Source of the DNA: an uncultured Acidobacteriota bacterium
Lineage (GTDB): Bacteria > Acidobacteriota > Thermoanaerobaculia > Multivoradales > SZUA-115
Direction of reading: 5' to 3'
Assembly: GCA_963805975.1 (NCBI GenBank)
Contig: CAWDVR010000001.1
Location: 736,001-800,000, forward strand
DNA length: 64,000 nt
This document shows, piece by piece, positions 650 to 55,755 of this stretch. The notes beneath the pieces are model-generated. The model worked only from the letters and a program-made list of their open reading frames with translations, had not been told where the DNA came from and searched no databases. Both the position numbers and the translations under genes were made by a program. Within the stretch, counting starts at the first letter, position 1. Each line of letters opens with the position of its first letter.

Positions 650-1981
650 CTACGGCACGGTGAGAGACCAGGCGCTGGTGTCGCCGCTCTCGAAGCCGTC
701 GATGAAGATGTCGCCCAGGGCCGCCCAATCCGTGCAGCCGCCACCCTCGTGGATGCAGCTCACGTTGCCGTTCCAGTTCGACAGCAGGTACAGCTCGCCC
801 AACTGGTCCTGGCCAAATCCGAAGGGCCCCTGGCTCGAGCCCACCAGGGTGCTGGCCCAGGGGACCGGTCCCGGTGATGCCAGCCAGACCTGGCCGTTGC
901 TGGCGTCGCCGTAGATGTAGCGGCCGCCCAGGTCGTTGGCGGCGAAAGTGCCGCGATACAGGAAGCCGCCCATCACCGAGCGCCAGTTCCCGCCGGCGCC
1001 GGCGTTGGCTTCCTGGCGCACCGGATCAGTGAAGCTGGCACCGCAGCCCTGTGGCGGGTTGCTGCAGCCGGAGGCGTCGAAGCCTTCGCGGCAGGGCCAG
1101 CCGAAGTTGATCGGCGCACCCGCGGTCACCGAGCCGGCCACTAGCCGGTTGACCTCCTCCCAGTCGTCCTGGCCCACGTCGCCGATGTAGATGTCGCCGT
1201 TCGAGCGGTCGAAGTTGAAGCGGAAGGGGTTGCGCAGGCCGAGCACCCAGATCTCGTCGGCACCGGCGACGCCCACCAGTGGGTTCCCCGGCGGGAGCGC
1301 GTAGTTGCGCAGGGCGTCGGCGGGATAGGCATCGGCGCCGTCGACGTCGAGCCGCAGCATCTTGCCCAGGAGCTGGTTCACGTCCTGGCCGCTGTGCGCC
1401 GTCGAGTCGCAGCTTCCGCCACCGTCGCCGAGGGTGATGTACAAATAGCCGTCCGCGCCGAACTTCAGGTCGCCGCCGTTGTGGTTGCTGTCGGAATGGC
1501 CTACCACGAGGATGATCTGGGCGGTGGCCGGGTCGAGGCGCTCGGGGTTGCCCGCGTCCCGCGTGTAGCGCTCGATGACGATGTCGCCGGTGTTGATGCC
1601 GCCCGCGCCGTCCCAGTTGCGGCTGGTGTAGTAGAGGTAGGCGAAGCCGTTGCTCGCGTAGTCCGGGTGCACGGTCATCGCCAGCAGGCCGCGCTCGCCG
1701 CCATAGAGCACCTTGCGCTGGGCCTCGGGCACCGCGGCGTCGTTGCGCAGGTCGAGGAAGGGCGTCGCGAGCACGGTCGAGCCGTCCCACACCATGATGT
1801 CGCCTTCCTGCTGTGCCACGAAGCGGTGGGAGCGGCCGTCCGGCGGGTCCAGGAAGGCCGTGGGCTCGTCGAGCCCGGTGATGAGCGGGGTGAAGGTGAC
1901 CGCGGCCCGGGCCGGAAGAACGGCCGCCGCCACGAGGGCTACGGCCAGGAGGCCGATTCTCTGCGTGGGAGCTGATCTCAT
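650..1981 (-). CDS. Secreted PQQ-dependent sugar dehydrogenase (GSDH/sorbosone type) with C-terminal IFxDGFESGD tag
   Basis: Signal peptide; motifs GERGLL, NHNGGDLKFGADGYLYITLGDGG, GLRNPFRFNFD, DVGQDDWEEVN, NFGWP; ends IFIDGFESGDTSAWSLTVP. Confidence 0.88.
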   Translation of the reverse strand: MRSAPTQRIGLLAVALVAAAVLPARAAVTFTPLITGLDEPTAFLDPPDGRSHRFVAQQEGDIMVWDGSTVLATPFLDLRNDAAVPEAQRKVLYGGERGLLAMTVHPDYASNGFAYLYYTSRNWDGAGGINTGDIVIERYTRDAGNPERLDPATAQIILVVGHSDSNHNGGDLKFGADGYLYITLGDGGGSCDSTAHSGQDVNQLLGKMLRLDVDGADAYPADALRNYALPPGNPLVGVAGADEIWVLGLRNPFRFNFDRSNGDIYIGDVGQDDWEEVNRLVAGSVTAGAPINFGWPCREGFDASGCSNPPQGCGASFTDPVRQEANAGAGGNWRSVMGGFLYRGTFAANDLGGRYIYGDASNGQVWLASPGPVPWASTLVGSSQGPFGFGQDQLGELYLLSNWNGNVSCIHEGGGCTDWAALGDIFIDGFESGDTSAWSLTVP

Positions 1982-2097
1982 GGGAACTCCTCGTGAGAAT
2001 TGAGGAAATAGATGGGCTGCAATCTAAAGGCCAGGACGACAGAAGACCCTTCGATCAGAGCACAGCCTGCCAGAGGCCGGAAGTGAGGTACTTCACA

Positions 2098-2123
2098 GGC
2101 ACGCTCACGCTGCGGAGCGTGCC
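2098..2123. terminator. Hairpin downstream of lpdA, possible terminator
   Basis: GGCACGCTC-8nt-GAGCGTGCC perfect 9-bp stem; no clear U-tract. Confidence 0.3.
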
Positions 2124-2185
2124 CATACTTGCCGGGTGGACCTGACGGTTTTTCCGGGCGGTGACTCAGAGCGTTCCCGGCGCGT

Positions 2186-4012
2186 CTACCGTTTCTTCCT
2201 CGGCAAGTACAGATCCGTCACCGTCCCCTCGAACATCTCTGCCGCCATGGCGATGGTCTCTGACAGCGTCGGATGCGGGTGGATGGTGAGAGCGAGGTCT
2301 GCGGCTTCGGAGTTCATCTCGATCGCCAGCGCGGCCTCGGAGATGAGGTCGCCGGCGTTGGGGCCCACGGCGCCGGCGCCGAGCAGACGGCGGGTCGTAG
2401 GGTCGAAGAGCAGTTTGGTGGTGCCTTCGGTGCGCGCGAGGGACATGGCCCGTCCGCTCGCGGCCCAGGGGAAGCTCGCCTTCTCGTAGGCGACCTTCTT
2501 TTCCTTCGCTTCTTTCTCGGTCAGGCCCACCCAGGCGATCTCCGGGTCGGTGTAGGCGACCGACGGGATCACCCGCGCATCGAAGTAGCTCTTCTCACCG
2601 GCCGCCGCCTCGGCCGCCACCTTGGCCTCGTGCTGCGCCTTGTGCGCCAGCATGGGCGGTCGGGCCACGTCGCCGATGGCGAAGATGTGTGGCACGTTCG
2701 TGCGCATCTGGCGATCCACCGGCAGGAAGCCCCGGTCGGTGACCTCGAGCCCCGCGGCCTGGGCGTGGATCTGGTCGCCGTTCGGCCGGCGGCCCACGGC
2801 CACCAGCACGCGGTCGAACTCCCCCTGGGCCGGCGCCTTCGGGCCGTCGAACGAGGCGACGAGGTGCTCCTTCTTCGCCTCGAGCCGGGTCACCTTGGTC
2901 TCGAGATGGATGGCGTCGTAGCGGCCCGCGAGCCGCTTGGCGAGCGGCTTCACGAGGTCGGCGTCGCACTCGGGGATGAGCTGCTTCATCAGCTCGACGA
3001 GGGTCACCCGCGAGCCGAGCGCGGAGTACACGCAGGCCATCTCGAGGCCGATGATGCCGCCGCCCACCACCAGCAGGCGCTCCGGCACCTCCTCCAGGAG
3101 CAGGGCGCCGGTCGAGTCCATGACCCGCGGGTCGTCGAGGTCGAAGGCCGGGAGCTTCGTGACCCGCGAGCCCACCGCCACGATGGCCTGGTCGAAGGAG
3201 AGGGAGCGCGTGCCGCCGTCGCCCGTGACCTCGATCGCATGCGGGCCGGTGAAGCGGCCGGTGCCGTGGACCACGGTCACCCCGCGGCGCTGGGCCAGCA
3301 CGGCGAGGTTGCCGGTCATCTTGTCGACCACTCCCTGCTTCCAGCCGGCGAGCCGTGGCAGATCGATCCGCAGCTCGCCGAAGGTCACGCCGTGGGCCGC
3401 CAGGTCCGCGGCCTCGTCGATCACCTTGGCCGCGTGCAGCAAGGCTTTGGACGGGATGCAGCCCACGTTGAGGCAGACGCCGCCGAGCGACGGATAGCGC
3501 TCGACCAGCGTCACCTCGAGCCCGAGGTCCGCGGCGCGGAAGGCGGCGGTGTAGCCGCCGGGGCCGGAACCCAGAACCAGCAGTCGGCGGCCCGGTGACG
3601 GACCGGCCGCGGGCTTGGTGGAAGGTGCCGACTGCTCTTGGGCGGGTTGGGGAGGCTCGTCTTCAGAGACCACTGTCTCGGGAGCCTCTTCCGGCTGGCG
3701 CGCCTCGGCGGCGGGAGCCGGCTCCCGGGTCTCGGCCTGGTCTCGCGCCGGCGCCTCGGCCCCCTCTTCGGCGGCCAGGGTCAGCACCAGGTCGCCTTCC
3801 TTGACCTTGGCCTGCAACGCGACCCGGATCTCCTGCACCACGCCGGCGGCGGGAGCGGGCAGGTCCATGCTCGCCTTGTCGGTCGCCAGCACTACGAGGC
3901 CGTCGTCCTTGGCCACGCGCTGGCCGGGCGAGACCAGGATCTCCACCACGTCCACCGCGTCGGCGCCGCCGACGTCGGGAACCCGGACTTCGATCAAGTT
4001 TCCTGCGCTCAT
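2186..4012 (-). CDS. lpdA: Dihydrolipoyl dehydrogenase (E3) with N-terminal lipoyl domain
   Basis: GSGPGGY FAD motif, CLNVGC redox disulfide, GGGIIG NAD motif, HPHPTLSE; N-terminal DKASM lipoyl-Lys domain plus Pro/Ala linker. Confidence 0.96.
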   Translation of the reverse strand: MSAGNLIEVRVPDVGGADAVDVVEILVSPGQRVAKDDGLVVLATDKASMDLPAPAAGVVQEIRVALQAKVKEGDLVLTLAAEEGAEAPARDQAETREPAPAAEARQPEEAPETVVSEDEPPQPAQEQSAPSTKPAAGPSPGRRLLVLGSGPGGYTAAFRAADLGLEVTLVERYPSLGGVCLNVGCIPSKALLHAAKVIDEAADLAAHGVTFGELRIDLPRLAGWKQGVVDKMTGNLAVLAQRRGVTVVHGTGRFTGPHAIEVTGDGGTRSLSFDQAIVAVGSRVTKLPAFDLDDPRVMDSTGALLLEEVPERLLVVGGGIIGLEMACVYSALGSRVTLVELMKQLIPECDADLVKPLAKRLAGRYDAIHLETKVTRLEAKKEHLVASFDGPKAPAQGEFDRVLVAVGRRPNGDQIHAQAAGLEVTDRGFLPVDRQMRTNVPHIFAIGDVARPPMLAHKAQHEAKVAAEAAAGEKSYFDARVIPSVAYTDPEIAWVGLTEKEAKEKKVAYEKASFPWAASGRAMSLARTEGTTKLLFDPTTRRLLGAGAVGPNAGDLISEAALAIEMNSEAADLALTIHPHPTLSETIAMAAEMFEGTVTDLYLPRKKR

Positions 4013-4019
4013 CGTCGTC

Positions 4020-5447
4020 CTACAGCAGCAGGCGCCGGATGTCGCCGAGCACCTTGCCCAGGAAGGTGGTGAAGCGCGCGGCCGCGGCGCCGTCGATCAC
4101 CCGGTGGTCGTAGGAGAGCGAGAGCGGCAGCATCAGGCGCGGCACCCACTGGCCGTCTTTCCACACCGGCCGCGTGGCGGTGCGGGAGACGCCCAGGATC
4201 GCCACCTCCGGCGCGTTGACGATCGGCGTGAAGGCCGTGCCGCCGATGCCGCCGAGGCTCGATATGGAGAAGGTGCCGCCGCCCAGGTCGTCGAGCTTGA
4301 GCTTGCCCTCGCGGGCGCGGGCCGAGACCTCCGCGAGCTCGCGCGCCAGCTCGATCAGGCCCTTCTGGTCCACATCGCGGATCACCGGCACCACCAGGCC
4401 CTCCGGGGTGTCGACGGCGATCCCGAGATGGAAGTACTTCTTGACCACCAGGCTAAGACCGTCCGGTGCCAGCGACGAGTTGAAGTCCGGATACTCCGCC
4501 AGCGCGGCGGTCGAGGCTTTGAGCAGGAAGGGCAGGAAGGTGAGCTTGACTCCTCTGGCCTCCGCTTCCTCGCCCTGCTGCTTGCGGAAGGCCTCGAGGT
4601 CGGTCACGTCGGCCTCGTCGTGCTGCGTGACGTGCGGCACGTTCAGCCAGGAGCGGTGGAGGTTGGCACCGGTGGCGCGCCGGATGCGCGACAACGGCTT
4701 GGACTCGACAGGGCCGAACTTCGAGAAGTCCACGGCCGGGATGGGCGGGATGCCCATGCCACCGGCCACCGCGCCCCCGGTGGAGGCCGCAGCCGCCGGC
4801 TCCGCGTTGAGCGCCAGCTTGACGAAGCCACGCACGTCGTCCTCGGTGATCCGCTCTTTTCGACCGGTGCCCCGCATCCGTCCGAGGTCCACACCCAGCT
4901 CGCGCGCGAACCTGCGTACGGCCGGGCTGGCGTAGGCGCGGGCCGTCTCGAGGTCGAACGCGGGGTAGGGCGCCGCGGTGGGCAATCCGGCCTGTTGGGG
5001 TGCGGGCGCCTGCTGCGGTGCGGGGGCGGATTGGGGCTCGGGCTGGGGATCGGGCGGCGGCGCGGATGCAGGTGCCGGCTCCGGCTGGGGTGTCGACGCC
5101 GGGGCCAGCTCCGACTTCGGAGGCTCCGCCGGCTGCTCTCTCGTCTCCTGTTTCTCCTGTTGCTTGGGGGGGGCAGGGGCGGGCGCGGCTGGTGCAGCCT
5201 TCTCGTCTCCCGCTTCGACGAGCAGGAGGAGCGTGCCCTCGCTGACCTTGTCGCCCTTCTGGACCTTCACCTCCCGGACCACGCCGCCGAACGGCGCGGG
5301 CACGTCCATGCTCGCTTTGTCGCTCTCCAGGGTGACCAGCGAGTCGTCCTTCCCGACCGAGTCTCCCGGCTTCACCAGGACGTCGATCACGTCCACGGTG
5401 TCGAAGCCCCCGATGTCGGGGACGGTCACTTCTTTCAGTTGCGCCAT
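4020..5447 (-). CDS. aceF: Pyruvate dehydrogenase E2, dihydrolipoyl acetyltransferase
   Basis: Single lipoyl domain (ESDKASM), ASPAVRRFARE binding domain, SYDHRVIDG catalytic motif. Confidence 0.96.
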   Translation of the reverse strand: MAQLKEVTVPDIGGFDTVDVIDVLVKPGDSVGKDDSLVTLESDKASMDVPAPFGGVVREVKVQKGDKVSEGTLLLLVEAGDEKAAPAAPAPAPPKQQEKQETREQPAEPPKSELAPASTPQPEPAPASAPPPDPQPEPQSAPAPQQAPAPQQAGLPTAAPYPAFDLETARAYASPAVRRFARELGVDLGRMRGTGRKERITEDDVRGFVKLALNAEPAAAASTGGAVAGGMGIPPIPAVDFSKFGPVESKPLSRIRRATGANLHRSWLNVPHVTQHDEADVTDLEAFRKQQGEEAEARGVKLTFLPFLLKASTAALAEYPDFNSSLAPDGLSLVVKKYFHLGIAVDTPEGLVVPVIRDVDQKGLIELARELAEVSARAREGKLKLDDLGGGTFSISSLGGIGGTAFTPIVNAPEVAILGVSRTATRPVWKDGQWVPRLMLPLSLSYDHRVIDGAAAARFTTFLGKVLGDIRRLLL

Positions 5448-5463
5448 CGCTTCACTCTCCCGC

Positions 5464-8145
<2,682 letters not shown>

Positions 8146-8300
8146 GTAGATCCTCTGGGGCACTGGAACAGTCAGGGGCCGCAGGCGGCGACGCTCTCAC
8201 CGCGCCGCGCGGAACAGGCATTATGTCAGGATGCACCAGCGGCACGAACCGGAGGCCCGCCCTGCTCAGATTGAGAACACCGTCTTCCGGCAATGGAGTA

Positions 8301-32700: not shown

Positions 32701-33347
32701 ACCTCGAGAAGAACGGCTGCACCACGCGGCGCGAGCTGACGCAGTCGGTGTTCGTCGAGGTGGGTGTCGACCCCACGGCGAGCGGCGTACAGGCCACGCC
32801 GCACCAGCCCGGGGCCGCCGGGGGCTACGACGTGACGCTCACTCCCCGCGACCGGCTGGGCAACCTCTGGGGCCCCGGCCGTCCCGGCGCCATCCAGTGC
32901 CGCGCCGACGACGGCTGCCGCTGCGACGCAGGGAAGGTGACCGACCGCGGCGACGGCTCCTACGTGATCCCGGTGGCGGTCAAGGCGAACGCCCGGCAGT
33001 GCCGCATCGACGCCTTCGGCACGGTCTTCGACCTCGCCTGGAACCGCCGGCCGGCCTCCTGCGCGGCGCTCCTCAAATCGCTCGACAATCCGCGCATCGA
33101 CGGCGCACTGCGCAACAAGCTTCGCTTCAAGGTCGAGGCCGCCTGCGAGCAATGGCACGCCGTCGAGGGCGACTGGAGCCTGGCCACCACCCAGGCCAGC
33201 TCGACCCTGGCCGAGGTGCTACACGAGATCGAGTCCCACGCCGGCGCCGACCTGCCGGCAGCCGACGTCGCGGAGCTGAAGCGACGAGTGCAGGAGCTGG
33301 CGAAAGAGGGCGGGCTCGAGGTGGGGGAGGCGCATCCGCATCACTGA
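29751..33347 (+). CDS. Secreted Cys-rich tyrosinase-like (type-3 copper) plus vWA multidomain protein
   Basis: GAGGAGG ribosome-binding site; signal peptide; HSAWH, AFHR, HGNMH and DPMFWRLH; vWA MIDAS DRSGS..T..LTDG; LFDDGTNGD motif. Confidence 0.8.
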   Translation: MPLRRTGFPRSGLAPLAAAVLLAFAFAFASAEPARAQTCWAYVNTPASAPISCVDQGDLSPGCFWNGDCHDDLDLSDCCTTIPGGPQSVLQMHSAWHSCFGAIGDSDGDNPPMRGNRWYAFHRQIEHDYNLWRESGNFCNPTAGSPQGCKIESVDWCPNMLLPYGFDCDLAAGGTGCGTQGFVADNSAQDCNPTLGSTNPCRPNNAACPGCQAFPQCLFLGGAGPAACPLAPSASCSGTGVNLPHTELADFPDVEELTTLLDSSFHGNMHGAVGTAGPCGDINSSGCSVRDPMFWRLHKAIDDVVRAWQDINATDVMVVVDRSGSMNELDSTGDSKLTAALEAADLFADLMEDARADGQTNRIGVVSYASNAGDAARNLAPIAAGPTLRDPGQPFPNVLAAIGGAGGGGCTGIGSGIQAAADQICPGGDCGAVPDPPPAGTNRRKSILLLTDGIENVPPCLQSAGPAGATCGGQCFGATLDATRLYDTQVCAVGFGDAGSLNGDLLTLFAERQGGIYMQNPALDPDGEWIDLKDFFAKCFGQLTDEFLGLDPKGILAPGQAASEAIEYTSCGDGKLTFVGGWKTAVDRGELRLLIHAPNGDLVRPGAGVETSTQATWDFSRLRLPYGTASTGLWQAHLVRPHRAFVNGFTSDAFADPKAGVELVRREIQRLCPTGCKRVLYFEDQTLGTSVYDKAIQVELGTRLLGTVSRTNRPDELAGLLRREWDLLVYAHQKGEAPEPYDGPLAERICGGQRAILTDTRGQAAASILKCAGAAYDEGRNHRLLAVDGELLAGQHKLHDPGHAIWSYGLRPAGSTAQARLDGRTHGIVAAVQRGAEQRWFVDVLVRGLNKLEAHKPVSHFETGSDLLPSVRISPFTVTAGGFDRVQARVEIERPLLGLGTLLARTGLAKEVRIGEERLDPRAATLLALEQARRGPVIPTTTETYPLFDDGTNGDLVAGNNYFSAQLPRAASADGMYRYRYILDLEKNGCTTRRELTQSVFVEVGVDPTASGVQATPHQPGAAGGYDVTLTPRDRLGNLWGPGRPGAIQCRADDGCRCDAGKVTDRGDGSYVIPVAVKANARQCRIDAFGTVFDLAWNRRPASCAALLKSLDNPRIDGALRNKLRFKVEAACEQWHAVEGDWSLATTQASSTLAEVLHEIESHAGADLPAADVAELKRRVQELAKEGGLEVGEAHPHH

Positions 33348-33384
33348 GCGGTGGAGCCTGTGACGCTGGCCCTCGAGTCGCGGC

Positions 33385-34663
33385 TCAGGTTCCGTCCACC
33401 ACGAGGCTCCAGGCGGAGAGGTCGCCGGTCTCGAAGCTGTCCTCGAAGATCGATGAGGGCGTGGCGTAGGCCACGAAGGCGCCGGTGCCCCACTCGATCT
33501 GGTTGTCGGCAGGCGGGGTGAGGGTGGCGGCGAAGGAGACGTCGCCCGCTTCGTTGATCGCCACTCCGCCGCCGAAGACCGGGCTCGAATCGTTCTGGTC
33601 GACGCGCGCCGTGCCGAGGTCGGTGGGCAGGAGGTCGTGCTCGCGGACCACGCGCGCGGAGCATGGTGCCGTCGCCCACGAAGACGGCGCGCAGGCCACT
33701 CTCGTCGAAAGCGCGGAAGGCGACCAGACCGGTCTCGTTGACGGCGGGCGCGAAGAACTCGAGCTCCGAGAGGTCGGGCCCGGACTCGACCGCGATGGTG
33801 ACGGTGGTCACTCCGTCGGACAGGAACACGCCACGCCCGCCGGCGACCAGGGTGGCGAGGAAGACCACGCGGCCGTCGTTGGTGAGCGCCACGCTGTTGT
33901 CGAAACGCGCGTAGGGCGAGGCGGCGTTGGAATCGACGTCCTCGGCGATCAGCACCGAGCTGCCGTTGGGTTCGAAGATGCGGATCTGGTCCGGCCGGCT
34001 CTCTGCGATCTCCCCCGCGGCGCCGAGCCGCACTTTGCCGGCGATCTGCCGCGCGTCGTTGAAGGCGGGGGTGAAGAGGAAGGAGTAGGGGCTCCCCACC
34101 ACGACGCCGGCTTCGGCGGCGTGGATCGGCACGGTGGAGGTGCCGTCGTAGGAGACCCAGGTCTGGCCCGAGCCCGAGAAACCGGCCCGGTAGCCCACCT
34201 GCCCGAGGTCGTTGATCGAGGGCGACCCCCATGAGGAAGCACCCAGGGGCAGGTTGGTGAGGAAGCCGGCGGTGTCGGTCTTCGAGTCGTAGGTGTAGAG
34301 GCCTTGGGGGCTCGAGAACGCCTCGTCCCACACCGCGACGCCGGCGTTGTTCAGGCCCACGGAGAGCACGAAGGCCTCCTCGTCGCTCTGGTAGACGATC
34401 TCCCCCTGGGCCTGGCCTCCGAACCACACCCCCTGGCCGGTCGAGCTTGGCAGCACCTCCAGGTCGAAGGCCATCTGTCCCAGGTCGTTCAGCCGTGGCG
34501 TGGTGTTCGAGAAGAAGGCGCTCCCCGGCAGGTTGAAGGCGCCGCTGAAGTTGGCTCTCGCCTGGAGCTCGAAGGTTTCGTAGGTCGGGACCTCGGCCGT
34601 GGCGCCAGAGGCTAGCGCCGTGGCGAGGAGAAAGCTGGAGGCAGATCGCAGGGTGGGTTTCAG
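33385..34663 (-). CDS. Secreted NxxGxxAF-repeat (beta-propeller-like) protein with C-terminal IFxDxFETGD tag; probable CTG start; frameshift near 33657
   Basis: Repeats LNDLGQMAF, LNNAGVAVW, INDLGQVGY, TNDGRVVF, VNETGLVAF, INEAGDVSF; the tail IFEDSFETGDLSAWS lies in the 33385..33699 frame. Confidence 0.75.
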
Positions 34664-34759
34664 AAGGGGCTCCTTCCCGAAGACGTCTGGATCCTAGCGC
34701 AGCGCCGGGAGGGTGCCGTGCGCCCGGCCGCGGCACGCCCAACTGCTAAGCTTCGACAG

Positions 34760-37234
34760 ATGTCGTTGCTCCCGAAGCTGCCGGCTGCCGTGCTGGGCGC
34801 CGGCCTCGCCGCCTCGATCCTCGCGCCCGTGCTCTCGTCCGCGCAGCCTCTGGCGCTGCGCCTGCCGGTGCTCTCGCTCCGCGAGGCGGCGATCACGGTC
34901 GCCCCGACCCTTGCCGCGAGGCCCGATGCGAACGCCGAGGACGTCGCCGAGCCGCTACCCCCGAGCTCCGAGGTGCTACCGCGGGCGCTCGCCCTGGAAG
35001 AGGAGGCGGAGCGGACCCGTGCCGAGCTCGCGCAGTCGTTCGGCCAGGCTGCCGGGGACCCGGAGCTGGCGGAGCTCCAGGAAGGCTTCGCGCGCCTGCG
35101 GCGGCGGCTCGCCGCGGTGGTGGGCGAAGGACCGATCGACGGCGACCGCGTGGCGCGGCTCCGGGCGCGGGCCCGGAAGGCGGGCGCCCATCTCGAGCAG
35201 GAGCTGGAGGCCACCTACGGCCGCTACCGCCGGCTGGAGCAGCTCGCCTCCGACTGGGACGGCCACCGCGACTTCTTCGCCCGCTGGCAGGCGGCGCTGC
35301 TCGCCGACCCCAGCTACGGCTCGCTGCGCGACGAGCTCACCGAGACCCGCCAGCGCATCGAGGTCGTGCGCGCCGAGATCGCCGCCGCGGTGCCGGCGGC
35401 CCGCGAGGCGCAGCAGCGGGCGCAGGGCCTGGTGCGGGAGCAGCGCGAGATCGAGGTCGAGGTCGAGCGCACCCTGGACGAGTGGGAGGCGAGCCTGCGG
35501 CGCCCGAGCGGCCCGGCCATGGTCACGCCGGCCTTCCTGGCCGAGCTCGAGCAGACTCAGGTCCTCGAACAGATTGGGGTCAGCGTGCCTCGCGATACCA
35601 GGCTCACGCCCCCCGGGCTGGATGCCGATTTTCTGCGAGACCACGCGTTCACCCTCCTGCTCCAGATCGCGGTGGGCCTGCTGGTCGCTTTCGGAGCGCG
35701 CTGGCTGCACCACGCGGCAGGCCCGGAAGACCCCTGGCACGGCCTCCTCGCACGCCCCTGGGCTCTGGGCCTGTTCGCTGCCGTGGCCGGCTTCGGCTCG
35801 CTCTACGACCCGGCGCCGGGCGTGTGGCGACTGCTGCCGGCGGTGCTGCTCGCGGTCTCGCTGGCCCGCTTGGCCGGCGCCACCTTCACCCGGCCGCGCG
35901 CCCGCTGGGCGGTCTACCTGCTCGCCCTGCTGCACGTCGCCTTCGAGGGCGCGGAGACCCTGGGCCTGGCCGAGCCGGTGGCGCGGCTGGTGCTGCTCTC
36001 CCTGGCCCTCGTGCCCCTCGCCCTGCTGCTACCGAGCGTGCTCCGCGAGCATCGCGAGCACGACCGCCTGACGCTCTTCGGCGTGGCGCTGCGGCTGGGA
36101 GTGGCGCTCCTGGCGGTGCTCGCTCTGGCCGAGGTGGCCGGTTTTCATCCGCTGGCGCGCTGGTTCTACCAGGCCGGCCTGCGCAGCACGATCGTGATCT
36201 TCGTCACCTCCTTCATCCTGCTGCTGGCGGCCAAGCTCAGCCGCCTCCTGCTGGCCTCGCCGGCCGTTGCCCGCCGTCGCCTCCTGTCCCAGCGGCGCGA
36301 GGAGCTGGCACGGCGCTTCCGGCGCGCGCTCACGGTGGTGGTGGTCGCGGTCGCGGCGCTGTTCATGGCCGATATCTGGCACCTGGCGGACTCGCCGTAC
36401 TCGGCGTGGCTGTCGCTCCTACGCTGGAACGCGTCCTTCGGCAGCTACCGGGTGACCGCCGGGCAGGCGCTCTTCGCCGCCGGGGCGCTCTACCTGGCCC
36501 TGGTGGTCTCCTGGCTGCTGCGCGCCGCGCTCGACGAACGGGTGGCGCACGGCGGCGGCCTGGACCGCGGCGCCGGCGACTCGGTGAAGACCCTGATCCG
36601 CTACTCGTTCATCGTCGTCGGGTTCTTTCTCGCCCTCTCGCTCCTGGGGATCGACCTCTCGAACTTCGCGATCCTGGCCGGCGCCTTCGGCGTGGGCATC
36701 GGTTTCGGGCTGCAGAACGTGGTCAACAACTTCGTCAGCGGCCTGATCCTGCTCTTCGAGCGACCGGTGCGCGCCGGTGACTCGGTGGTGGTGGCGGGCG
36801 ACAGCGGGGTCATCCGGCGGATCGGCCTGCGCTCGACGGTGATGCAGACCGGCGACCGCGCGGAGATCATCGTGCCGAACAGCCAGTTGATCGCCGAGAA
36901 AGTGACCAACTGGACGCTGTCCTCGCGCTCCGCCCGCTTGGCGGTGCCGGTGCGCGTTGCCTACGGCAGCGACCTGCGCAAAGTGCAGGAGATCCTGGAA
37001 ACGCTCGCCCGGGAGCACCCCAAGGTCTTGCCGGAGCCCAAGCCCCAGGGCCAGATCGTGGCGCTGGGGGAGAGCGCCATCGCTTTCGAGCTGCGCGCCA
37101 CCGTGGCCGACGTCGAGCAGCGGGGGGACGTGCAGCACGACCTCATGGCCGCCGTGGCCGAGCGTTTCGACGCCGAGGGCATCGCCATCCCGTTCCCGCA
37201 ACGGGAGGTGCATATACAGAAGGAGGATGGATGA
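34760..37234 (+). CDS. Mechanosensitive channel MscS family (MscK-like, periplasmic coiled coil)
   Basis: GVGIGFGLQNVVNNFVSGLILLFERP, IVPNSQL, VTNWT, IPFPQREVH. Confidence 0.92.
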   Translation: MSLLPKLPAAVLGAGLAASILAPVLSSAQPLALRLPVLSLREAAITVAPTLAARPDANAEDVAEPLPPSSEVLPRALALEEEAERTRAELAQSFGQAAGDPELAELQEGFARLRRRLAAVVGEGPIDGDRVARLRARARKAGAHLEQELEATYGRYRRLEQLASDWDGHRDFFARWQAALLADPSYGSLRDELTETRQRIEVVRAEIAAAVPAAREAQQRAQGLVREQREIEVEVERTLDEWEASLRRPSGPAMVTPAFLAELEQTQVLEQIGVSVPRDTRLTPPGLDADFLRDHAFTLLLQIAVGLLVAFGARWLHHAAGPEDPWHGLLARPWALGLFAAVAGFGSLYDPAPGVWRLLPAVLLAVSLARLAGATFTRPRARWAVYLLALLHVAFEGAETLGLAEPVARLVLLSLALVPLALLLPSVLREHREHDRLTLFGVALRLGVALLAVLALAEVAGFHPLARWFYQAGLRSTIVIFVTSFILLLAAKLSRLLLASPAVARRRLLSQRREELARRFRRALTVVVVAVAALFMADIWHLADSPYSAWLSLLRWNASFGSYRVTAGQALFAAGALYLALVVSWLLRAALDERVAHGGGLDRGAGDSVKTLIRYSFIVVGFFLALSLLGIDLSNFAILAGAFGVGIGFGLQNVVNNFVSGLILLFERPVRAGDSVVVAGDSGVIRRIGLRSTVMQTGDRAEIIVPNSQLIAEKVTNWTLSSRSARLAVPVRVAYGSDLRKVQEILETLAREHPKVLPEPKPQGQIVALGESAIAFELRATVADVEQRGDVQHDLMAAVAERFDAEGIAIPFPQREVHIQKEDG

Positions 37235-45671: not shown

Positions 45672-45676
45672 CCGGC

Positions 45677-45800
45677 GCCCCTCACCCCGTCCCTCTCCCC
45701 GCTAACGCGGGGCGAGGGCGCCACCGCCCGCCCCTGAGAACCACAGGCCACCCTCCGGTCCCCTCTCCCCGCTTGCGGGGAGAGGGCCAGGGTGAGGGGC
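45677..45800. repeat. REP/REPIN-like palindromic element (CCCTCACCC...CCCTCTCCC...GGGAGAGGG type)
   Basis: Terminal inverted repeat GCCCCTCACCC/GGGTGAGGGGC enclosing two hairpins; related copy at 54886-54970. Confidence 0.75.
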
Positions 45801-45850
45801 CCTGGATCCACTCTTGACGCCCTCCCCTCCCTCTGCTTTGCTCCGCCCGC

Positions 45851-48639: not shown

Positions 48640-48653
48640 CTCGACAAAAAAGA

Positions 48654-48671
48654 GAACGGTCGTGCTATTCT
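48654..48671 (+). promoter_or_regulatory. Putative TetR operator overlapping the -10 box (TATTCT) of a leaderless tetR gene
   Basis: GAACGGTCGTGCT (reverse complement AGCACGACCGTTC); near-identical site at 49313-49325. Confidence 0.65.
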
Positions 48672-48677
48672 GGCGGC

Positions 48678-49268
48678 GTGTCCAAGGGTGAAGAGACCCG
48701 GGCCGCGATCCTCGATGCGGCGCTCGCCTCGGCCAGCCGTGTCGGTCTGGGGGCGCTCAGCCTGGGGGACCTCGCCCAGCAGGTAGGCCTGTCGAAGAGC
48801 GGCCTCTTCGCCCACTTCGAGTCGAAAGAGCATCTGCAGTTGGAGGTGGTGCAGCGCGCAAAGGATCGCTTCGTCGAAGTGGTCATCGGCCCCGCCTTGC
48901 GCCAGCCACGCGGCGAGCCCCGCGTCCGCGCCCTCTACGAGAACTGGTTCCGCTGGTCGAGCGCCAGCGAGCTGCCCGGCGGCTGCGTGTTCATCGCCGC
49001 GGCCAGCGAGCTCGACGATCGGCCCGGCCCGCTCCGGGACTCGATCGTCGCCGCACAGCGGGACTGGCTGGGGGTGCTGGCGCAGGCCGCCCGCATCGCC
49101 ATCGAGGAAGGCCAGTTCCGCGCCGGGCTCGACGCCGACCAGTTCGCCTGGGAAGTGAAAGCCACGATCCTCGCCTACCATCACTTCGCCCGCCTGCTCC
49201 AAGCCGAGGACGCGAAGGCCCGTGCCTTCCGCGCCTTCGAAGCCCTGCTCACCTCCGCCCGCGCCTGA
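48678..49268 (+). CDS. TetR/AcrR family regulator
   Basis: TRAAILDAA...LAQQVGLSKSGLFAHFESKEHL; GGCVF. Confidence 0.93.
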   Translation: MSKGEETRAAILDAALASASRVGLGALSLGDLAQQVGLSKSGLFAHFESKEHLQLEVVQRAKDRFVEVVIGPALRQPRGEPRVRALYENWFRWSSASELPGGCVFIAAASELDDRPGPLRDSIVAAQRDWLGVLAQAARIAIEEGQFRAGLDADQFAWEVKATILAYHHFARLLQAEDAKARAFRAFEALLTSARA

Positions 49269-49279
49269 AGGAGATCCCC

Positions 49280-50194
49280 ATGGTCGAGACGGTCCTCGCC
49301 GGAGCAGAAAAAAGCACGATCGTTCGGTCTCATTTTGACGCGCCACCCCCGCCGCCACCCGGCGCCGGCCTGCTCGGTGCGGTGGTGCGCGCCGCGGACC
49401 AGCTCTCGCCCGCCTGGGGCGCGAGCCTCGCCGCCCGGCTCTTCACCACGACCCGGCGCCGTCGCACGCCGGCCCGCGAAGCGGCGTGGCTCGCAACGGC
49501 CGAGCGCTCGACGCTCGTCGTGGGCAGCCACCGGCTGGCGGCCTGGACCTGGGAGGCCATGGGCGACGGCGAGGGCGGACCCACCGTGCTCCTGATCCAC
49601 GGCTGGGAGGGCCGTGCCTCGCAGCTCGGCGCGGTCGCCTCGGCGCTCGCCGGGGCCGGCTGCCGTGCGATCGCGGTGGACCTTCCGGCGCACGGCGAGA
49701 CCGCCGGCCGGCGCACCAATCTCTACGAGATGGCCTCGGTGGTCGAGGGCCTGGCCACGCGGCTGGGCCCGCTCGCCGGCATCGTCGCCCACTCGTTCGG
49801 AGCGGCGGCCACCACGGTGGCTCTGCGCCGTCCGCTCGACGTGGAGCGGCTGGTCTACCTGGCGCCGTCCGAGGACTTCAATCATTTCACCGGCCTCTTC
49901 GGACGCTGGCTCGGCCTCGAGGCCTCGCTCGTCGAGCGCATGCAGCAGTCGATCGAGCGCCGCATCGGCATCGGCTGGAACGAGCTCCGTGCCTCCCACC
50001 TGGCGCCGTCGATGACTAAACCGCTGCTGATCTTCCACGACGAGCAGGATGCCGACGTGCCCGCCAGTCACGGCCTGACCTATGCCGCGCGCTGGCCCGG
50101 CGCGCGGCTCGTTACCACCCGCGGCCTCGGGCATCGGCGCATCCTGCGCCAGCCGGAAGTGGTGACGGCGGTGGTGGACTTTCTTCGAAGATAG
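49280..50194 (+). CDS. Alpha/beta hydrolase
   Basis: LIHGWEG, AHSFG nucleophile motif, HDEQDADVP, GLGHRRIL. Confidence 0.9.
   Translation: MVETVLAGAEKSTIVRSHFDAPPPPPPGAGLLGAVVRAADQLSPAWGASLAARLFTTTRRRRTPAREAAWLATAERSTLVVGSHRLAAWTWEAMGDGEGGPTVLLIHGWEGRASQLGAVASALAGAGCRAIAVDLPAHGETAGRRTNLYEMASVVEGLATRLGPLAGIVAHSFGAAATTVALRRPLDVERLVYLAPSEDFNHFTGLFGRWLGLEASLVERMQQSIERRIGIGWNELRASHLAPSMTKPLLIFHDEQDADVPASHGLTYAARWPGARLVTTRGLGHRRILRQPEVVTAVVDFLRR
49313..49325 (+). promoter_or_regulatory. Second putative TetR operator, inside the 5' end of the hydrolase ORF
   Basis: AGCACGATCGTTC, 12/13 identical to the inverted upstream site. Confidence 0.6.
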
Positions 50195-50331
50195 GAATCG
50201 CAATTTGGCTATTTAAGGTCACGAAAGTGCAGGTAGGCGCACTCCTGTGGTTAGAGCACACGAGAAACCACCTCGGCCGGACGTGGACGGACAAGGCCCG
50301 CCCAGGCCGGCCCTCAACAAGGAGAAGCTCC

Positions 50332-50997
50332 ATGCTGCGCAAGATCCTGCTCGTCGCGTCCGTGTCCCTGCTCGCGGCTTCGGCTGCCTGGGCCAAGCCG
50401 CCGGTCTACTTCAGCTTCGCCTCGGACGACTACCACGAAGGGCCGACCTTCAAGGCCAGCGGCGCCCTGTTGTATGGCCAGGGTCGGGTCGACCTGATGG
50501 TCGATCAGCAGAGCGATTTCGAGGGCGGGGTGGTGATCTTCCCGAGCTTCTTCGAGCTCAAGGCCCAGATGCACTCGTACAACGTGGTGGCGGTCGGCCC
50601 TGCCTTCCTCCACATCTGGGAGTATGAAGGCGAGCTCAGCTTCACCCACTACGACACCGCGTTCGGCTTCCCGCTGTTGCTGACGACCCGGTTCAAGTAC
50701 GCGGTGCTGACCAGCCAGTCGCCCTCCGCCACGCAGGCGGGAGAGACGATGACTCTCCAGGCCTCGCAGAGCGTGGACTCCAACGTGGTCTTCCGGGACG
50801 GTGCCGGCCTCGAGGCGGTGCTGAATCTGGTCTACCCGGACGACTATGTCGGCTACAGCTCGGACTTCGCCTTCACCTTCACCAACGTGCGCAGCGGCGG
50901 CCTCGTCGGCCCGCCGCCGAACGTGGACCCCGGCGGCAAGTTCCGCGACGATTGGGAGTCCGAGGGCAGCTTCTCGGCCTCGGGCGGGAACGGCTGA
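50332..50997 (+). CDS. Secreted beta-rich hypothetical protein
   Basis: AAGGAG ribosome-binding site; signal peptide MLRKILLVASVSLLAASAAWA; aromatic-rich beta strands. Confidence 0.78.
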   Translation: MLRKILLVASVSLLAASAAWAKPPVYFSFASDDYHEGPTFKASGALLYGQGRVDLMVDQQSDFEGGVVIFPSFFELKAQMHSYNVVAVGPAFLHIWEYEGELSFTHYDTAFGFPLLLTTRFKYAVLTSQSPSATQAGETMTLQASQSVDSNVVFRDGAGLEAVLNLVYPDDYVGYSSDFAFTFTNVRSGGLVGPPPNVDPGGKFRDDWESEGSFSASGGNG

Positions 50998-51107
50998 CGT
51001 TCGTAGCGATCGGATAGGAAACGGAAACCGGTAGTAGTCAATCGATACGCCCCCTCGGGCCGTGAGGACGGCAGCGGCGAAATCGATACACTGTCTCCGG
51101 TTTCCCC

Positions 51108-52694
51108 ATGCCCCGCCCCGAAGCCGTAGACCTCGAGCTCTTCACCCACCGATTCGCCGCCGTGGCGCGCGAGATGGGGGAGATGCTGCGGCGCACGGCG
51201 CTGTCGGTGAACGTCAAGGAGCGTCTGGACTTCTCCTGCGCGGTGCTCGACGCGGCCGGCCGGCTGGTGGTGAACGCGCCGCACATCCCCGTGCATCTCG
51301 GGGCCCTGGGCCTCTGCGTGCGGAAGGTACGGGAGGCGCTGCCGCTCGGGCCCGGGGACGTGGTGGTGACCAACCACCCGGCGTACGGGGGCTCGCACCT
51401 GCCGGACGTGACGGTGGTCACGCCGGTCCATCTGCCGGGTGCCGTCCACCTGCCGGATACGGGCGCGCTGCTGGGCTACGTGGCGAGCCGCGCACACCAC
51501 GCGGAGATCGGCGGCGCGCGGCCGGGCTCGATGCCGCCCGCCGCCACCTGCCTGGCGGAGGAGGGCGTGGTGATCCCGCCGATGTACCTGCTGCGCGGCG
51601 GCGTGCCGGCGTGGGGCGAGATCGAAGCACGGCTCGCCGCACCGCCCTTCCCCTCGCGTGCGGTTGCAGAGAACCTGGCGGACTTGGCGGCGGCGGTGGC
51701 CGCGAACCACCGTGGCGCCGCGGAGCTCGGGGCCCTCGCTGCCGCGCACGGCGCCGGCACGGTCGCGCATTTCATGACCGCCCTGGCGGAGCGCGCCGCC
51801 GACCGGGCCCGAGCGGCCCTCGGCCGCCTGCCCGAGGGCGAGCACCGGGCGGAGGAGCGGCTGGACGACGGCTCGCCGATCCGTGTCCGCATCGCCGTCA
51901 GCGAAGGCCGAGCGGTGATCGACTTCACGGGCACTTCCGGCGCCCATCCCGGCAACCTCAACGCGCCTCCGGCCGTGACCCGGAGCGCCGTGCTCTACGT
52001 GCTGCGGCTGCTGGTGGGCCAATCCGTACCGTCGAGCTCGCTGCCGTTGAACGAGGGCCTGCTCGAGCCGGTGGAGCTGATCCTCCCTCCCGGCCTGCTC
52101 AACCCGGACTTCCCGGCGGATCCGGCCGCGGCTCCGGCGGTGGTGGGCGGCAACGTCGAGACCAGCCAGCGGGTGGTGGACACGCTGCTCAAGGCCCTCG
52201 GCCTCGCCGCCTGCAGCCAGGGCACGATGAACAACGTGCTCTTCGGCAACCCCGGCTTCGGCTACTACGAGACGGTGGCGGGCGGCTGCGGCGCGACCGA
52301 GGGCTTCGACGGTGCCTCGGCCGTCCACAGCCACATGACCAACACCCGAATCACCGACCCGGAGGTGCTCGAGCTGCGCTACCCGGTGCGCCTGGAGCGG
52401 TTCGCGGTGCGCCGCGGCTCGGGAGGGCGCGGGCGCTTCCGCGGTGGCGATGGCGCCGTCCGCGAGTACACCTTCCTCGAGCCGGTCTCGCTCTCGATCC
52501 TCTCCCAGCACCGCAACGAAGGCCCCTACGGCGCCGACGGCGGCGAGCCTGGGGCGCCGGGCCGTCAGCGCGTGGTGCGCACGGACGGCGAGGTGGTGGA
52601 GCTCGCCGCGATCACGGCGTACGACGCCGAGGTCGGTGATCGGCTGCTCCTCGAAACACCGGGCGGAGGGGGATGGGGCAGCGAAAGGGGATAA
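51108..52694 (+). CDS. Hydantoinase B / 5-oxoprolinase, C-terminal half
   Basis: [57 protein letters not shown]. Confidence 0.93.
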
Positions 52695-52739
52695 ACTTTC
52701 GCCACGGTTCTCGTATCCATCCTGGGCAAGGAGGCCACC

Positions 52740-53339
52740 ATCCTCACCATCGCGTACCTCGCGTTGACGGTCTTCGGCTGCGGCTACGTGCTGGTCTCGT
52801 TGCTGCTGGGCCACGGAGATTTCGGTCACGAGGGTGACCATGCCGGGGGCCTGCACGAGGTGCACGTGGACTACGGCGTGAACCACACCGGCCACGGCAC
52901 GGCCGAAGCCGGGCACGGCTTCTCGGACTTCCATTTTCCGTTCTTCTCGCCGCTGGCGCTGGCCACCCTCCTGGGCTCGGTCGGTGCCTTCGGCCTCATC
53001 ACCCGCCACGGGCTCGGGGTGTCGGAAGGCTGGAGCCTCGCCCTCGCCCTGCCCGCGGCGCTCGCCACCACCTACGTCATCACCTACGCCGGCTGGCGGC
53101 TGGCCTCGGGCTCGCGGGGCACCAGCCAGATCTCGCCACGGGATCTCGAAGGAGCGGCCGGCGAGGTCATCACGCCGATCCCGGCGGGTGGGGTGGGAGA
53201 GGTGGCGGCGATGGTCGGCGGCCAGCGCTTTGCCAGCGCGGCGCGCGAGGAGCACGGGCGCGAGGTGCCGCGCGGCGCTCGGGTGACGGTCAAGTCGATG
53301 GTTGGGACCACGCTTCTGGTGAGCAAAGGGGAGAGTTGA
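52740..53339 (+). CDS. NfeD/YuaF-like membrane protein; probable ATC start (first canonical start is TTG 52764)
   Basis: TM helices, His-rich loop, GEVITPIP..GVGEV OB-fold; directly upstream of flotillin. Confidence 0.8.
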   Translation: MLTIAYLALTVFGCGYVLVSLLLGHGDFGHEGDHAGGLHEVHVDYGVNHTGHGTAEAGHGFSDFHFPFFSPLALATLLGSVGAFGLITRHGLGVSEGWSLALALPAALATTYVITYAGWRLASGSRGTSQISPRDLEGAAGEVITPIPAGGVGEVAAMVGGQRFASAAREEHGREVPRGARVTVKSMVGTTLLVSKGES

Positions 53340-53340
53340 G

Positions 53341-54870
53341 ATGCAATTCAGCACCGCCACGCTGTTGCTCTGGGGCGCGGGAGCGCTCGGAGTCCTGATC
53401 CTCGGCTATGTGCTCGCCTACCTCGCCTTTCTCAAGAAGGTGGGGCCGAACGAGGTGCTGGTGGTCTCCGGCCGCGGCAAGGTCAAGTTCATCACCGGCG
53501 GCGCCGACATGGTGATCCCGCTCTTCCACACCTGGAACACTCTCTCGCTCCAGGTGATGACCCTCGACGTCACCACCCCCGAGGTCTACACCTCGCAGGG
53601 CGTGCCGATCCTGGTGGACGGCGTGGCGCAGATCAAGGTGAGGAAGGACGAGGCTTCCCTGCACTCCGCGGCCGAGCGCTTCCTGGGCAAGAAGCCCGAG
53701 GAGATCGCCCGCATCGCGCTCGAGACGGTGCAGGGTCACCTGCGCGCCATCCTCGGCACGCTGTCGGTCGAGGACATCTACAAGAACCGCGACCAGTTCG
53801 CCCAGAAGGTGCAGGAGATCTCGGCCGGCGACCTGGCCAACATGGGCCTGGGGATCGACTCCTTCACTATCCGCGACATCCGCGACAAGCACGGCTACCT
53901 CGAGGCCCTGGGCAAGCCGCGCATCGCCGAGGTCAAGCGCAACGCGGCGATCGCCGAGGCGCAGGCCAACCGCGATGCGTCGATCGCCCAGGCCGACGCC
54001 GAGCGCGAGACCCGCCAGCGCCAGGCCGAGGCCCAGAAACTGTCGCAGGAGGCCGAGGCCATGCGCGACGCGGCGGTGGCCGAGGCCAACGCCGACCGGG
54101 CGCGGCGCCAGGCCGAGGCCGACGCCTCCGCCTACCGCGCCGCCGAGGTGGCGAACCAGCAGGCGTCCGAGGCCATCGCCGACCAGCAGCGGACCGCCAA
54201 CCTGAAGAAGGCCAACGCGGACATGGCCTACGAGCTGCAGAAGAAGACGATCGAGATCCAGGTCCAGGAGCAGGAGATCCAACGCCGCGAGAAGGAGCTC
54301 GACGCCACCATCCGGCGCCAGGCGGACGCCAAGCGCTACGAGATCGAGACCCTGGCCGAGGCCGACCGCAAGCGCATCGAGACCCAGGCGCAGGCCGAGA
54401 AGAACCGGCTGGTGACAGTGGCCGACGGCGAGAAGGCGCGCGGCTTCGCGGCGGCCGAGGTGCAGGCGCGGCAGGGCCAGGCCGAGGCCGCGGCCCGGCA
54501 GGCTGTGGGCCTGGCCGAGGCCGAGGCGAAAAAGGCCCAGGGCTTGGCCGAGGCTCTGGCGATGGAGAAGAAGGCCGAGGCCTGGCAGAAGTACAACGAG
54601 GCGGCGGTGATGCAGATCCTGGCGCCGCTGCTCCCCGAGATCGCCCGCGCCGTGGCCGAGCCGCTGACCAAGGTGGACCGCATCACGCTGGTCAACACCG
54701 GCGGCGGCGAGGTCGGCGTCTCGCGCATCACCGGCGAGGTGGCCAAGATCATCGCCCAGGTGCCGCCGGTGCTCGAGTCGCTGACCGGCATCAAGCTCGA
54801 GGACTTGGTGAAGGGGCTCAAACCGGGTGGCGGGGGCGCGAGCCCGAAGCCCGAGACGACCGAGCCCTGA
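53341..54870 (+). CDS. Flotillin / SPFH domain protein
   Basis: GPNEVLVVSG, GHLRAILGTL, GYLEALG, AEA-rich flotillin coiled coil. Confidence 0.93.
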   Translation: MQFSTATLLLWGAGALGVLILGYVLAYLAFLKKVGPNEVLVVSGRGKVKFITGGADMVIPLFHTWNTLSLQVMTLDVTTPEVYTSQGVPILVDGVAQIKVRKDEASLHSAAERFLGKKPEEIARIALETVQGHLRAILGTLSVEDIYKNRDQFAQKVQEISAGDLANMGLGIDSFTIRDIRDKHGYLEALGKPRIAEVKRNAAIAEAQANRDASIAQADAERETRQRQAEAQKLSQEAEAMRDAAVAEANADRARRQAEADASAYRAAEVANQQASEAIADQQRTANLKKANADMAYELQKKTIEIQVQEQEIQRREKELDATIRRQADAKRYEIETLAEADRKRIETQAQAEKNRLVTVADGEKARGFAAAEVQARQGQAEAAARQAVGLAEAEAKKAQGLAEALAMEKKAEAWQKYNEAAVMQILAPLLPEIARAVAEPLTKVDRITLVNTGGGEVGVSRITGEVAKIIAQVPPVLESLTGIKLEDLVKGLKPGGGGASPKPETTEP

Positions 54871-54885
54871 TCCGCGCGAAAGCTG

Positions 54886-54970
54886 CCCTCACCCCGCCCC
54901 CTCGCCCAGCAGACCCTGCCGTTCTCCGGTCCCCTCTCCCGCTCGCGGGAGAGGGCAGGGGAGGGTACCC
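54886..54970. repeat. Second REP/REPIN-like element (partly degenerate)
   Basis: CCCTCACCCC...CTCCGGTCCCCTCTCCCGCTCGCGGGAGAGGG, similar to about 45753-45786. Confidence 0.7.
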
Positions 54971-55071
54971 CAAGCTCGCCGTGCACTCGCGCCCTCCTTC
55001 CGATAGAATGATGCAAATTTACTGCTAGTTCTTCGGCAAGCGTTCGCTCGCTGAAATGAAGGGAGGTTCCC

Positions 55072-55755
55072 ATGGCATCCCGTCGGTTGCTGGTGATCGG
55101 TGCTTGGTCCCTCAGTGCAGTGATGGTTCTGGGTCTCGTGGCGCTCCCGGTCAGCGCCCAGGAGACGACGGTGAAGAACGACTCGGTGAGCGACTTCGAG
55201 CAGGTCGCCATCCAGGCCGGCTTTGCCGCCAACGAGCGCGCCGCCGTCTGGCTGACCTCGCCCTGCGACGGCAAGCTGGTGGCCGTGCAGATCCTCTGGC
55301 GCTCCCTTTTCGGCGGCACCGGCGACACCCTCGGCGAGTCGATCCTCATCCAGGAGGCGGGCACGTTCCCGACTCCCGGTACGACGCTCTCCACCCTTTC
55401 CGGGCCGCTCCTCACGGACGGATTCCTGAACGAGTACCGCTTCCTGGACCAGGGCGGCACCGTGCCGCTCTCCGTGCCGCTGGCCCTGGACCAGGTCTTC
55501 GTGGTCTCGTTCCGCTTCCTCACAGCGACGCCCGGCCTCGGCCCCAGCCTGGTCACCGACGTCGACGGCTGCCAGGCGGGCAAGAACGCCATCTTCGCCA
55601 TCCCGCCTTCGACCTGGTTCTCGGCCTGCTCACTCGGCGTGTCCGGGGACTTCGTGATGCGGGCCGTGGTGGACTGCAGCGTGGTGGAGGAGGAGATCTT
55701 CTCCGACGACTTCGAGACCGGCGACACGTCGCTCTGGACGGTCACCGTTCCTTAG
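55072..55755 (+). CDS. Secreted hypothetical protein with C-terminal IFxDDFETGD tag
   Basis: GGGAGG ribosome-binding site; signal peptide ending VSA|Q; four Cys; ends IFSDDFETGDTSLWTVTVP. Confidence 0.82.
   Translation: MASRRLLVIGAWSLSAVMVLGLVALPVSAQETTVKNDSVSDFEQVAIQAGFAANERAAVWLTSPCDGKLVAVQILWRSLFGGTGDTLGESILIQEAGTFPTPGTTLSTLSGPLLTDGFLNEYRFLDQGGTVPLSVPLALDQVFVVSFRFLTATPGLGPSLVTDVDGCQAGKNAIFAIPPSTWFSACSLGVSGDFVMRAVVDCSVVEEEIFSDDFETGDTSLWTVTVP

Follow-up and report, generated by a model that had tools for sequence, protein, structure and literature searches.

In cellulosomes, many enzymes are docked on an envelope-anchored partner through non-covalent, calcium-linked cohesin-dockerin pairs (PF00404, PF00963), and the C-terminal domain (CTD) of type IX secretion system (T9SS) cargo is a folded domain of ~80 residues that is removed by a sortase. 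Other sorting signals are much shorter. As described in bioRxiv 10.1101/2023.06.07.544157, the LPXTG, PEP-CTERM, GlyGly-CTERM and MYXO-CTERM systems mark many unrelated exported proteins, choice-of-anchor proteins among them, with a short tag at the C-terminus and pair this tag with a single partner gene, often near polysaccharide genes. In archaeal cannulae and chaperone-usher pili, according to bioRxiv 10.1101/2024.12.30.630787, a strand of one chain completes the groove of another, without an enzyme and reinforced by Ca2+. Here we analyse a C-terminal tag on three proteins encoded in a 64,000-nucleotide stretch (the window) of an uncultured Acidobacteriota bacterium (assembly GCA_963805975.1, contig CAWDVR010000001.1, positions 736,001 to 800,000), together with its putative receptor elsewhere in the same genome. 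The tag resembles the short sorting signals in its cargo and its single partner gene and, by prediction, the pilus subunits in its manner of binding.

The original prediction was that three unrelated secreted proteins of the window end in nearly the same tail. Indeed, all three tails translate as claimed, each with a stop codon after it (650-709, minus strand; 33385-33450, minus strand; 55696-55755, plus strand), and their bodies are mutually unrelated, with a best pairwise BLAST E value of 0.74 or worse. Cargo 1 (650-1981, minus strand; 443 amino acids (aa)) is a glucose/sorbosone dehydrogenase-family protein (PF07995, E 6.8e-29) with a signal peptide of ~26 aa, judged by eye (1904-1981, minus strand), and a 19-residue tag, the chain used for the complex prediction below. 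Cargo 2 (33385-34663, minus strand; ~425 aa, 21-residue tag) is a choice-of-anchor, NxxGxxAF-repeat protein, MXAN_5453-like, similar to a family that is MYXO-CTERM-anchored elsewhere; its matches to NF045523 (E 1e-46 and 1e-25 on two frames) and TIGR05002 (E 5e-11) all lie below the curated cut-offs. Cargo 3 (55072-55755, plus strand; 227 aa, 19-residue tag) belongs to no known family and has a signal peptide by eye; its homologue in another genome (G115) is 59% identical and likewise tagged.

For gene 2 the prediction needs a correction: the tail is present, but in the assembly body and tag lie in differing frames (body open reading frame (ORF) 33341-34474, tag frame 33385-33807). Contigs of relatives from two independent runs (X1 and X4) have one base fewer at ~33653, within a CG run (33645-33660, minus strand), so that body and tag join in one ORF of ~425 aa, which probably begins with the CTG at 34663 that lies 6 nt behind an AAGGAG. 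The extra base is an assembly error or a strain mutation. On a relative's contig from run X3, the tag end of gene 2 (window 33398-33578) and the upstream region (34715-35340) are kept, and 670 other bases replace 1136, giving a different or shorter cargo body with the same tag.

The tag extends far beyond the window. In the source genome (G000; 5.36 Mb, 70% GC, 6 contigs), the motif F.[DN][GSDN]F[ED].G matched 44 six-frame ORFs, in all 44 within 17-23 residues of the stop codon; positions no more than 30 residues from a stop make up only 22% of ORF positions, and the reversed motif matched once. A hidden Markov model (HMM) of the tag recovered 45 full copies and one broken copy, after which the score fell from 24.6 to 9.1 bits. 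Together these results confirm that the C-terminal tag is real and not a product of chance. Across the 45 tags F, F and E are invariant, and D, G, G and W nearly so. The tagged bodies (n=44) group into 33 clusters, which include subtilases, M14 and trypsin peptidases, nucleases, FG-GAP, PKD and DUF11 proteins, oxidases, choice-of-anchor B proteins and a Tat-type DUF1501 protein (signal by eye). The expectation of a targeting tag that is always C-terminal and present in many copies on unrelated exported cargo thus holds for the whole genome. Signal peptides, judged throughout by a loose heuristic and by eye, were assigned to ~42 of the 45 tagged proteins. The heuristic alone discriminates poorly (35 of 45 tagged frames versus 1140 of 2541 background ORFs); by eye, a signal was located for seven of its ten misses, either in the frame itself or in one upstream, and the other three gave no clear call.

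As originally proposed, the tag is not of sortase or exosortase type. We found no membrane helix (the maximum 17-residue hydropathy in the last 40 aa was 1.4, and none of the 45 exceeded 1.6) and no basic tail (none of the 45 has two or more K/R in its last 8 residues; mean tag charge -3). None of the Pfam and NCBIfam models matches the tag, and a Protein Data Bank (PDB) sequence search with the tag profile returned weak matches only (E 0.03-0.6). Four G000 tags (C1:1140867, C2:31122, C6:116568 and C6:216767) end in a two-cysteine variant, W-T-x-C-x-G-x-C-P-P, which is probably a disulfide-closed end. An orphan mini-ORF at C5:644425-644592 (L031) consists of almost nothing but tag, and a frameshifted tag remnant lies at C3:303651-303749. 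Several tagged genes are frameshifted in this assembly (C2:1222244, C6:218658, C6:116568 and window 33653), suggesting that single-base errors are common in it. In a family of small proteins (L036:6698-7201; L037:6843-8591 and 6920-7447; L045:1669-2760; L047:6560-7135) another 24-47 conserved residues, a cysteine among them, come after the tag, and some members adjoin transposase-like genes.

Across 201 genomes searched in the phylum, the tag is patchily distributed; one low-copy genome (G156) encodes a protein in which a signal peptide is followed by the tag and then by a domain of ~190 aa, the tag opening the domain and not being terminal. The part after the tag matches exactly one protein of G000, P0004 (E 2e-8; 28% identity over 196 aa), encoded outside the window at C6:244914-245555, plus strand (L056:9915-10556). 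P0004 has a signal peptide, and its domain begins right behind it, at the position expected for the end of the tag. In a set of 162 stored proteins, the tag is missing from 24 of the 25 domain copies that adjoin a signal peptide, and a tag strand (at least 8 bits) precedes 200 of 272 internal copies, most of the others having a visibly degenerate strand. Homologues of window gene 1 in G127 and G295 (34-41% identity over ~400 aa) carry the tag and the whole receptor domain in one chain. The alignment and these natural fusions show, at the level of sequence, that tag and socket complement each other as parts of one domain: the tag consists of the first two strands, detached, of a jelly-roll domain of ~200 aa with a PL20/Cip1-like fold. 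That the tail might be merely a strand of a larger shared domain had been named as the case that would count against the original prediction; it is the first strand pair of such a domain, but a detached one, and the detachment would itself be the mechanism. As to the reader of the tag, the earlier idea of beta-strand addition with probable acidic metal binding gained support, and that of a translocon or protease gave way to a soluble exported jelly-roll without the tag strands.

We found no Pfam or NCBIfam match for P0004; the Atlas gave one lead, PF21340, present on 48% of the members of a 0.95 match. The domain belongs to a large family, with 4101 clusters at 50% identity. In a quick tree, fused forms of this acidobacterial class nest among tagless receptors (support 85) and may be either ancestral or re-fused. 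A locus search from the receptor alignment offered no usable conserved stretch, and the idea that the tag completes a MAM domain of its own cargo was dropped, as two or three such domains already own a first strand. In ten proteins (P0056, P0094, P0100, P0123, P0124, P0128, P0132, P0138, P0145 and P0151) the domain occurs in tandem copies, the later ones directly abutting without a first strand; this separate subgroup might represent scaffolds with several sockets, or structural proteins of phages. A second, broken receptor copy lies at C4:71498-72051 of G260 (L071, L073, L090, L095), whose intact copy is elsewhere. About 6 kb upstream of the G000 receptor gene, at L056:1-3643 (C6:231324-238642), two tandem paralogous large secreted proteins, untagged, have another conserved C-terminal domain in common. 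A 742-nt contig from an RNA run covers the receptor gene alone at depth 27, versus 2.3-4.4 for small neighbouring pieces, a difference that we do not count as evidence, because expression cannot be ranked from contigs and because this stretch had itself served to find the run.

The predicted fold of the intact domain is closest to the PL20 lyase 2zzj (Z 18.4, root-mean-square deviation (r.m.s.d.) 2.6, 190 residues aligned) and also resembles Cip1, 3zyp (Z 15.8, r.m.s.d. 2.9, 178 aligned). In Cip1, according to PMC3764139, a structural Ca2+ is held by Asp5, Glu7, a grip loop and Asp206, strand 1 comprises Ile2-Asp4, and a loop runs from Phe6 to Trp15. The tag maps onto strand 1 and the Phe6-Trp15 segment, and would thus be the first strand plus the Phe6-Glu7...Trp15 calcium-site loop of the same jelly-roll; the invariant receptor Asp183 maps onto Asp206. 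PL20 and Cip1, however, are single intact chains with 13-14% identity, and we claim no lyase activity for the receptor. The predicted complex of the receptor with window tag 1 scored 0.92, versus 0.01 for the best of three controls, passing a mark reached by 116 of 157 solved pairs and 2 of 215 mismatched pairs, a pass that would speak for likeness to a known fold more than for binding, because the two chains are halves of one such fold and split halves pass easily. Runs agreed on at least 97% of contacts, with a partner pLDDT of at least 77. Predicted contacts join tag residues 13-18 with receptor residues 183-187 and 17-19, and residues 25-28 with 32-35.

Tag and domain occur together. Among 121 genomes of the class, the tag was matched in 18 and the domain in 17, all of these within the 18, and neither was found in 103. 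In all 14 genomes with at least five tag matches, a tagless domain copy follows a signal peptide (one of these copies has an insertion). In a partly prospective test, seven genomes were picked by the receptor alone, which was later confirmed in them: six had from 19 to at least 70 tag matches, and one had a single match. The pattern also holds inside families (f10, 7 of 14; f5, 2 of 19). A single-query receptor match in the tagless genome G242 was weak, and the profile did not confirm it.

The split is reciprocal in Gammaproteobacteria. In Dokdonella, Rudaea, Marinicella, Aquimonas and relatives (Lysobacterales/Marinicella) the tag is short, ending at FE or FD, and each of the five short-tag genomes tested has exactly one receptor homologue. 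Gammaproteobacterial receptors hold the second half of the long tag at their own N-terminus, with W38 invariant in 25 of 25. Order-wide, among 151 genomes, the receptor was found in 61 of 72 genomes with at least three strict tags, in 12 of 20 that have one or two, and in 16 of 59 that lack them; on retesting, 9 of 11 'tagless' receptor genomes proved to bear variant motifs, mostly FxDRFE or FxDSFE. The loosest pattern gave 15-52 matches in receptor-positive genomes versus 3-7 in five receptor-negative controls. Receptors of cultured strains, all annotated 'hypothetical protein' at NCBI, include those of Dokdonella ginsengisoli (WP_380022628), Marinicella litoralis (WP_099017618) and Marinicella sp. 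W31 (WP_395373949). Directly 3' of the receptor gene, Dokdonella-type genomes carry a second candidate tag, on small proteins (signal peptides by eye) that end L-P-V-x-L-x-x-F-x-[VIA]-x (L237:9283-9789 and 7272-7799; L235:9925-10479; L238:10045-10530; 12 of 30 loci L253-L282). These are followed by a conserved gene of ~470 aa with no Pfam family, and one G000 protein with an LPV-type tail lies away from the receptor (C1:628156-628968). The LPV-type tail may be another split-domain pair and the anchor of the Dokdonella-type receptor clade.

Several receptors are joined to domains that would anchor them. One is fused to SLH (PF00395; G227). Dockerin fusions occur in G216 and within a clade of Gammaproteobacteria, with Dockerin_1 found on three of nine tested receptors of that type. 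The genes after these dockerin-fused gammaproteobacterial receptors encode cohesin-like, choice-of-anchor D and IPTL-CTERM proteins, only some of them over the curated cut-offs (Cohesin in one, IPTL-CTERM in three). P0004 itself lies directly upstream of arylsulfotransferase, PMT_2, Wzz-like, Sat/APS-kinase and nucleotide-sugar dehydrogenase genes. More generally, receptor loci of the class contain sulfatase-like genes in 10 of 15 cases and glycosyltransferases in 7 of 15, versus 9.4% and 5.3% of 20-kb windows of G000, an enrichment measured with query families from the same loci against a one-genome baseline.

Co-occurrence, natural fusions, the reciprocal split, the complex prediction and the SLH and dockerin anchors lead us to propose P0004 as the receptor. 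We consider it likely that the tag docks, after export, into this one exported socket, probably tethering dozens of unrelated enzymes and adhesins to the envelope without proteolysis. Cargo and socket, each with a signal peptide by eye, would be exported via Sec or Tat. The F-x-D-G-F-E part of the tag is predicted to pair with the last strand of the socket and W-S-L-T with another of its strands, and a Ca2+ is likely shared between the invariant Glu of the tag and the invariant Asp of the socket, as homology to Cip1 suggests. The socket would be held in the envelope by its SLH fusion, or by a dockerin beside a cohesin or IPTL-CTERM gene, in some genomes, where the fusions are observed and binding is presumed. 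The anchorless G000 socket most likely binds, or is linked to, a glycan made by the neighbouring genes, which is the weakest step of the proposal. From all this we infer binding of the tag, calcium bridging and a surface location; tag cleavage found no support in this analysis. A wider proposition, which we regard as reasonably probable, is that Acidobacteriota and Gammaproteobacteria have in common a new class of sorting system, in which a lectin-like jelly-roll is split, at a point differing by lineage, into a universal peptide plug, borne by tens to more than 70 exported proteins in each genome, and a single socket protein. Exchangeable attachments (surface glycan, SLH or dockerin-cohesin-IPTL-CTERM) would hold the socket to the envelope, for an enzyme-free, calcium-locked and exchangeable display of the whole secretome.

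The rebuilt domain could instead be a secretion pass or chaperone signal for a type II-like secretion system, the cargo being released and not anchored. Such a role would fit the whole domain terminating many cargo chains in G127, G295 and G166 in the fashion of a T9SS CTD, the lack of an anchor domain on most receptors of the class (that of G000 included), and the GspD-type secretins found over cut-off in Dokdonella and Marinicella, with secretin matches and a type II secretion-like cluster, by eye, in G000. Secretin matches are, however, not specific to tagged genomes, as they occur in tagless G175 too; the SLH and dockerin fusions and the cohesin and IPTL-CTERM neighbours are anchors; and tandem repeats of the intact domain fit a binding module. 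We regard this role as unlikely. Covalent processing of the tag, by cleavage or by linkage to a glycan or lipid through, for example, a neighbouring GT-C enzyme or ligase, would reduce the tagless domain to a related helper or bystander. Some receptor genes do lie next to membrane enzymes of the PMT_2 and Wzy_C families, and G000 has an exosortase-family match, but we found no single enzyme family common to all receptor loci, all 45 tags lack the helix and basic tail, and neither complementarity nor the reciprocal split point nor the fusions require an enzyme, making such processing quite improbable. We give very little credence to the tag being a non-functional remnant of a once-complete C-terminal domain, spread by recombination: intact domains do exist at cargo C-termini, and G000 holds one orphan mini-ORF and one broken tag, but a remnant would hardly keep F, F and E invariant across 45 tags and 33 unrelated cargo clusters, or follow, in two phyla, the presence of one complementary gene.

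Besides the missing anchor domains, the baseline of the glycan-gene enrichment and the limited meaning of the complex score, several observations weigh against docking of the tag into an envelope-held socket. The alignments and ligand that we used fall outside the calibration of the complex score, the tagless receptor is predicted to be well folded alone (pLDDT 93.6), and the tag strands are of low confidence in a single-chain fused model (pLDDT 45-55). In the class, G208 has one weak tag and no domain, and G201 a receptor and one tag only; 12 of the 17 positive genomes had served to build the receptor profile, and related genomes are not independent in these counts. In Gammaproteobacteria, 11 of the 72 tag-rich genomes gave no receptor match (a better profile, run on ten of them, matched in four, two weakly), G314 and G368 have a receptor and no stop-anchored tag above background, and three of eight inspected matches to the loosest pattern were not C-terminal, the other five being so. 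A basic glycan cleft on standalone receptors was considered and dropped, their net charge being mostly negative, and such mostly acidic receptors give no charge signal for anionic-glycan binding.

Among described systems, the tag shares the short motif of the tripartite signals, but falls outside their definition, as given in bioRxiv 10.1101/2023.06.07.544157, because it has neither membrane helix nor basic end; its predicted partner is, moreover, a soluble jelly-roll and not a peptidase, and no cleavage is implied. As judged from sequence and models, the acceptor lacks the strands that the donor would supply, as in donor-strand complementation. In cannulae and pili, however, as described in bioRxiv 10.1101/2024.12.30.630787, subunits donate strands mutually and build a filament, whereas here many unrelated cargo proteins would donate to one receptor without a donor strand: standalone receptors have the tag strand at neither end, and cargo bears the tag only.

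The likeness to the cellulosome lies in the docking of many enzymes on an envelope-anchored partner, and in some gammaproteobacteria real dockerin and cohesin parts extend the chain. A dockerin, however, is a folded domain of ~70 residues, and the tag is an unfolded piece, 9-21 residues long, of the receptor's own fold, with one socket per receptor chain. Dockerin_1 was absent from 42 tagged G000 frames and from the window proteins; it occurs instead on receptors of some other genomes. Like the T9SS CTD (TIGR04183), the tag is a membrane-free C-terminal targeting element on varied cargo. It does not match the CTD model: two 31-aa tails matched no NCBIfam model, and 41 tagged frames gave one internal TIGR04183 match, in a repeat region, and none at the tail, in agreement with the original view that it is not of T9SS type. 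SprA (PF14349) was not found in five genomes, though it was matched in no control genome either. By analogy, then, the pair would work like calcium-dependent donor-strand complementation in the role of a sorting signal, and would not belong to the pilus, tripartite, T9SS or cellulosome families. We found no published description of the tag or its reader in the literature searched, which omits most subscription journals and supplements; sorting by fold completion thus appears to be new as a sorting system, its absence from print not being proven.

The short C-terminal sorting signals with a known reader that have been described to date pair with a peptidase, and the tag described here would be read by fold completion. 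The analysis proposes a specific receptor for a tail that is very common, and unexplained, in Dokdonella, Marinicella, Rudaea and their relatives and in the acidobacterial class. If the proposal is true, it would offer a natural tag/catcher pair, with a tag of 9-19 residues, for protein display, dockerin and cohesin genes would have a role outside cellulosomes, and the tagged secretome of these environmental bacteria would be predictable from sequence.

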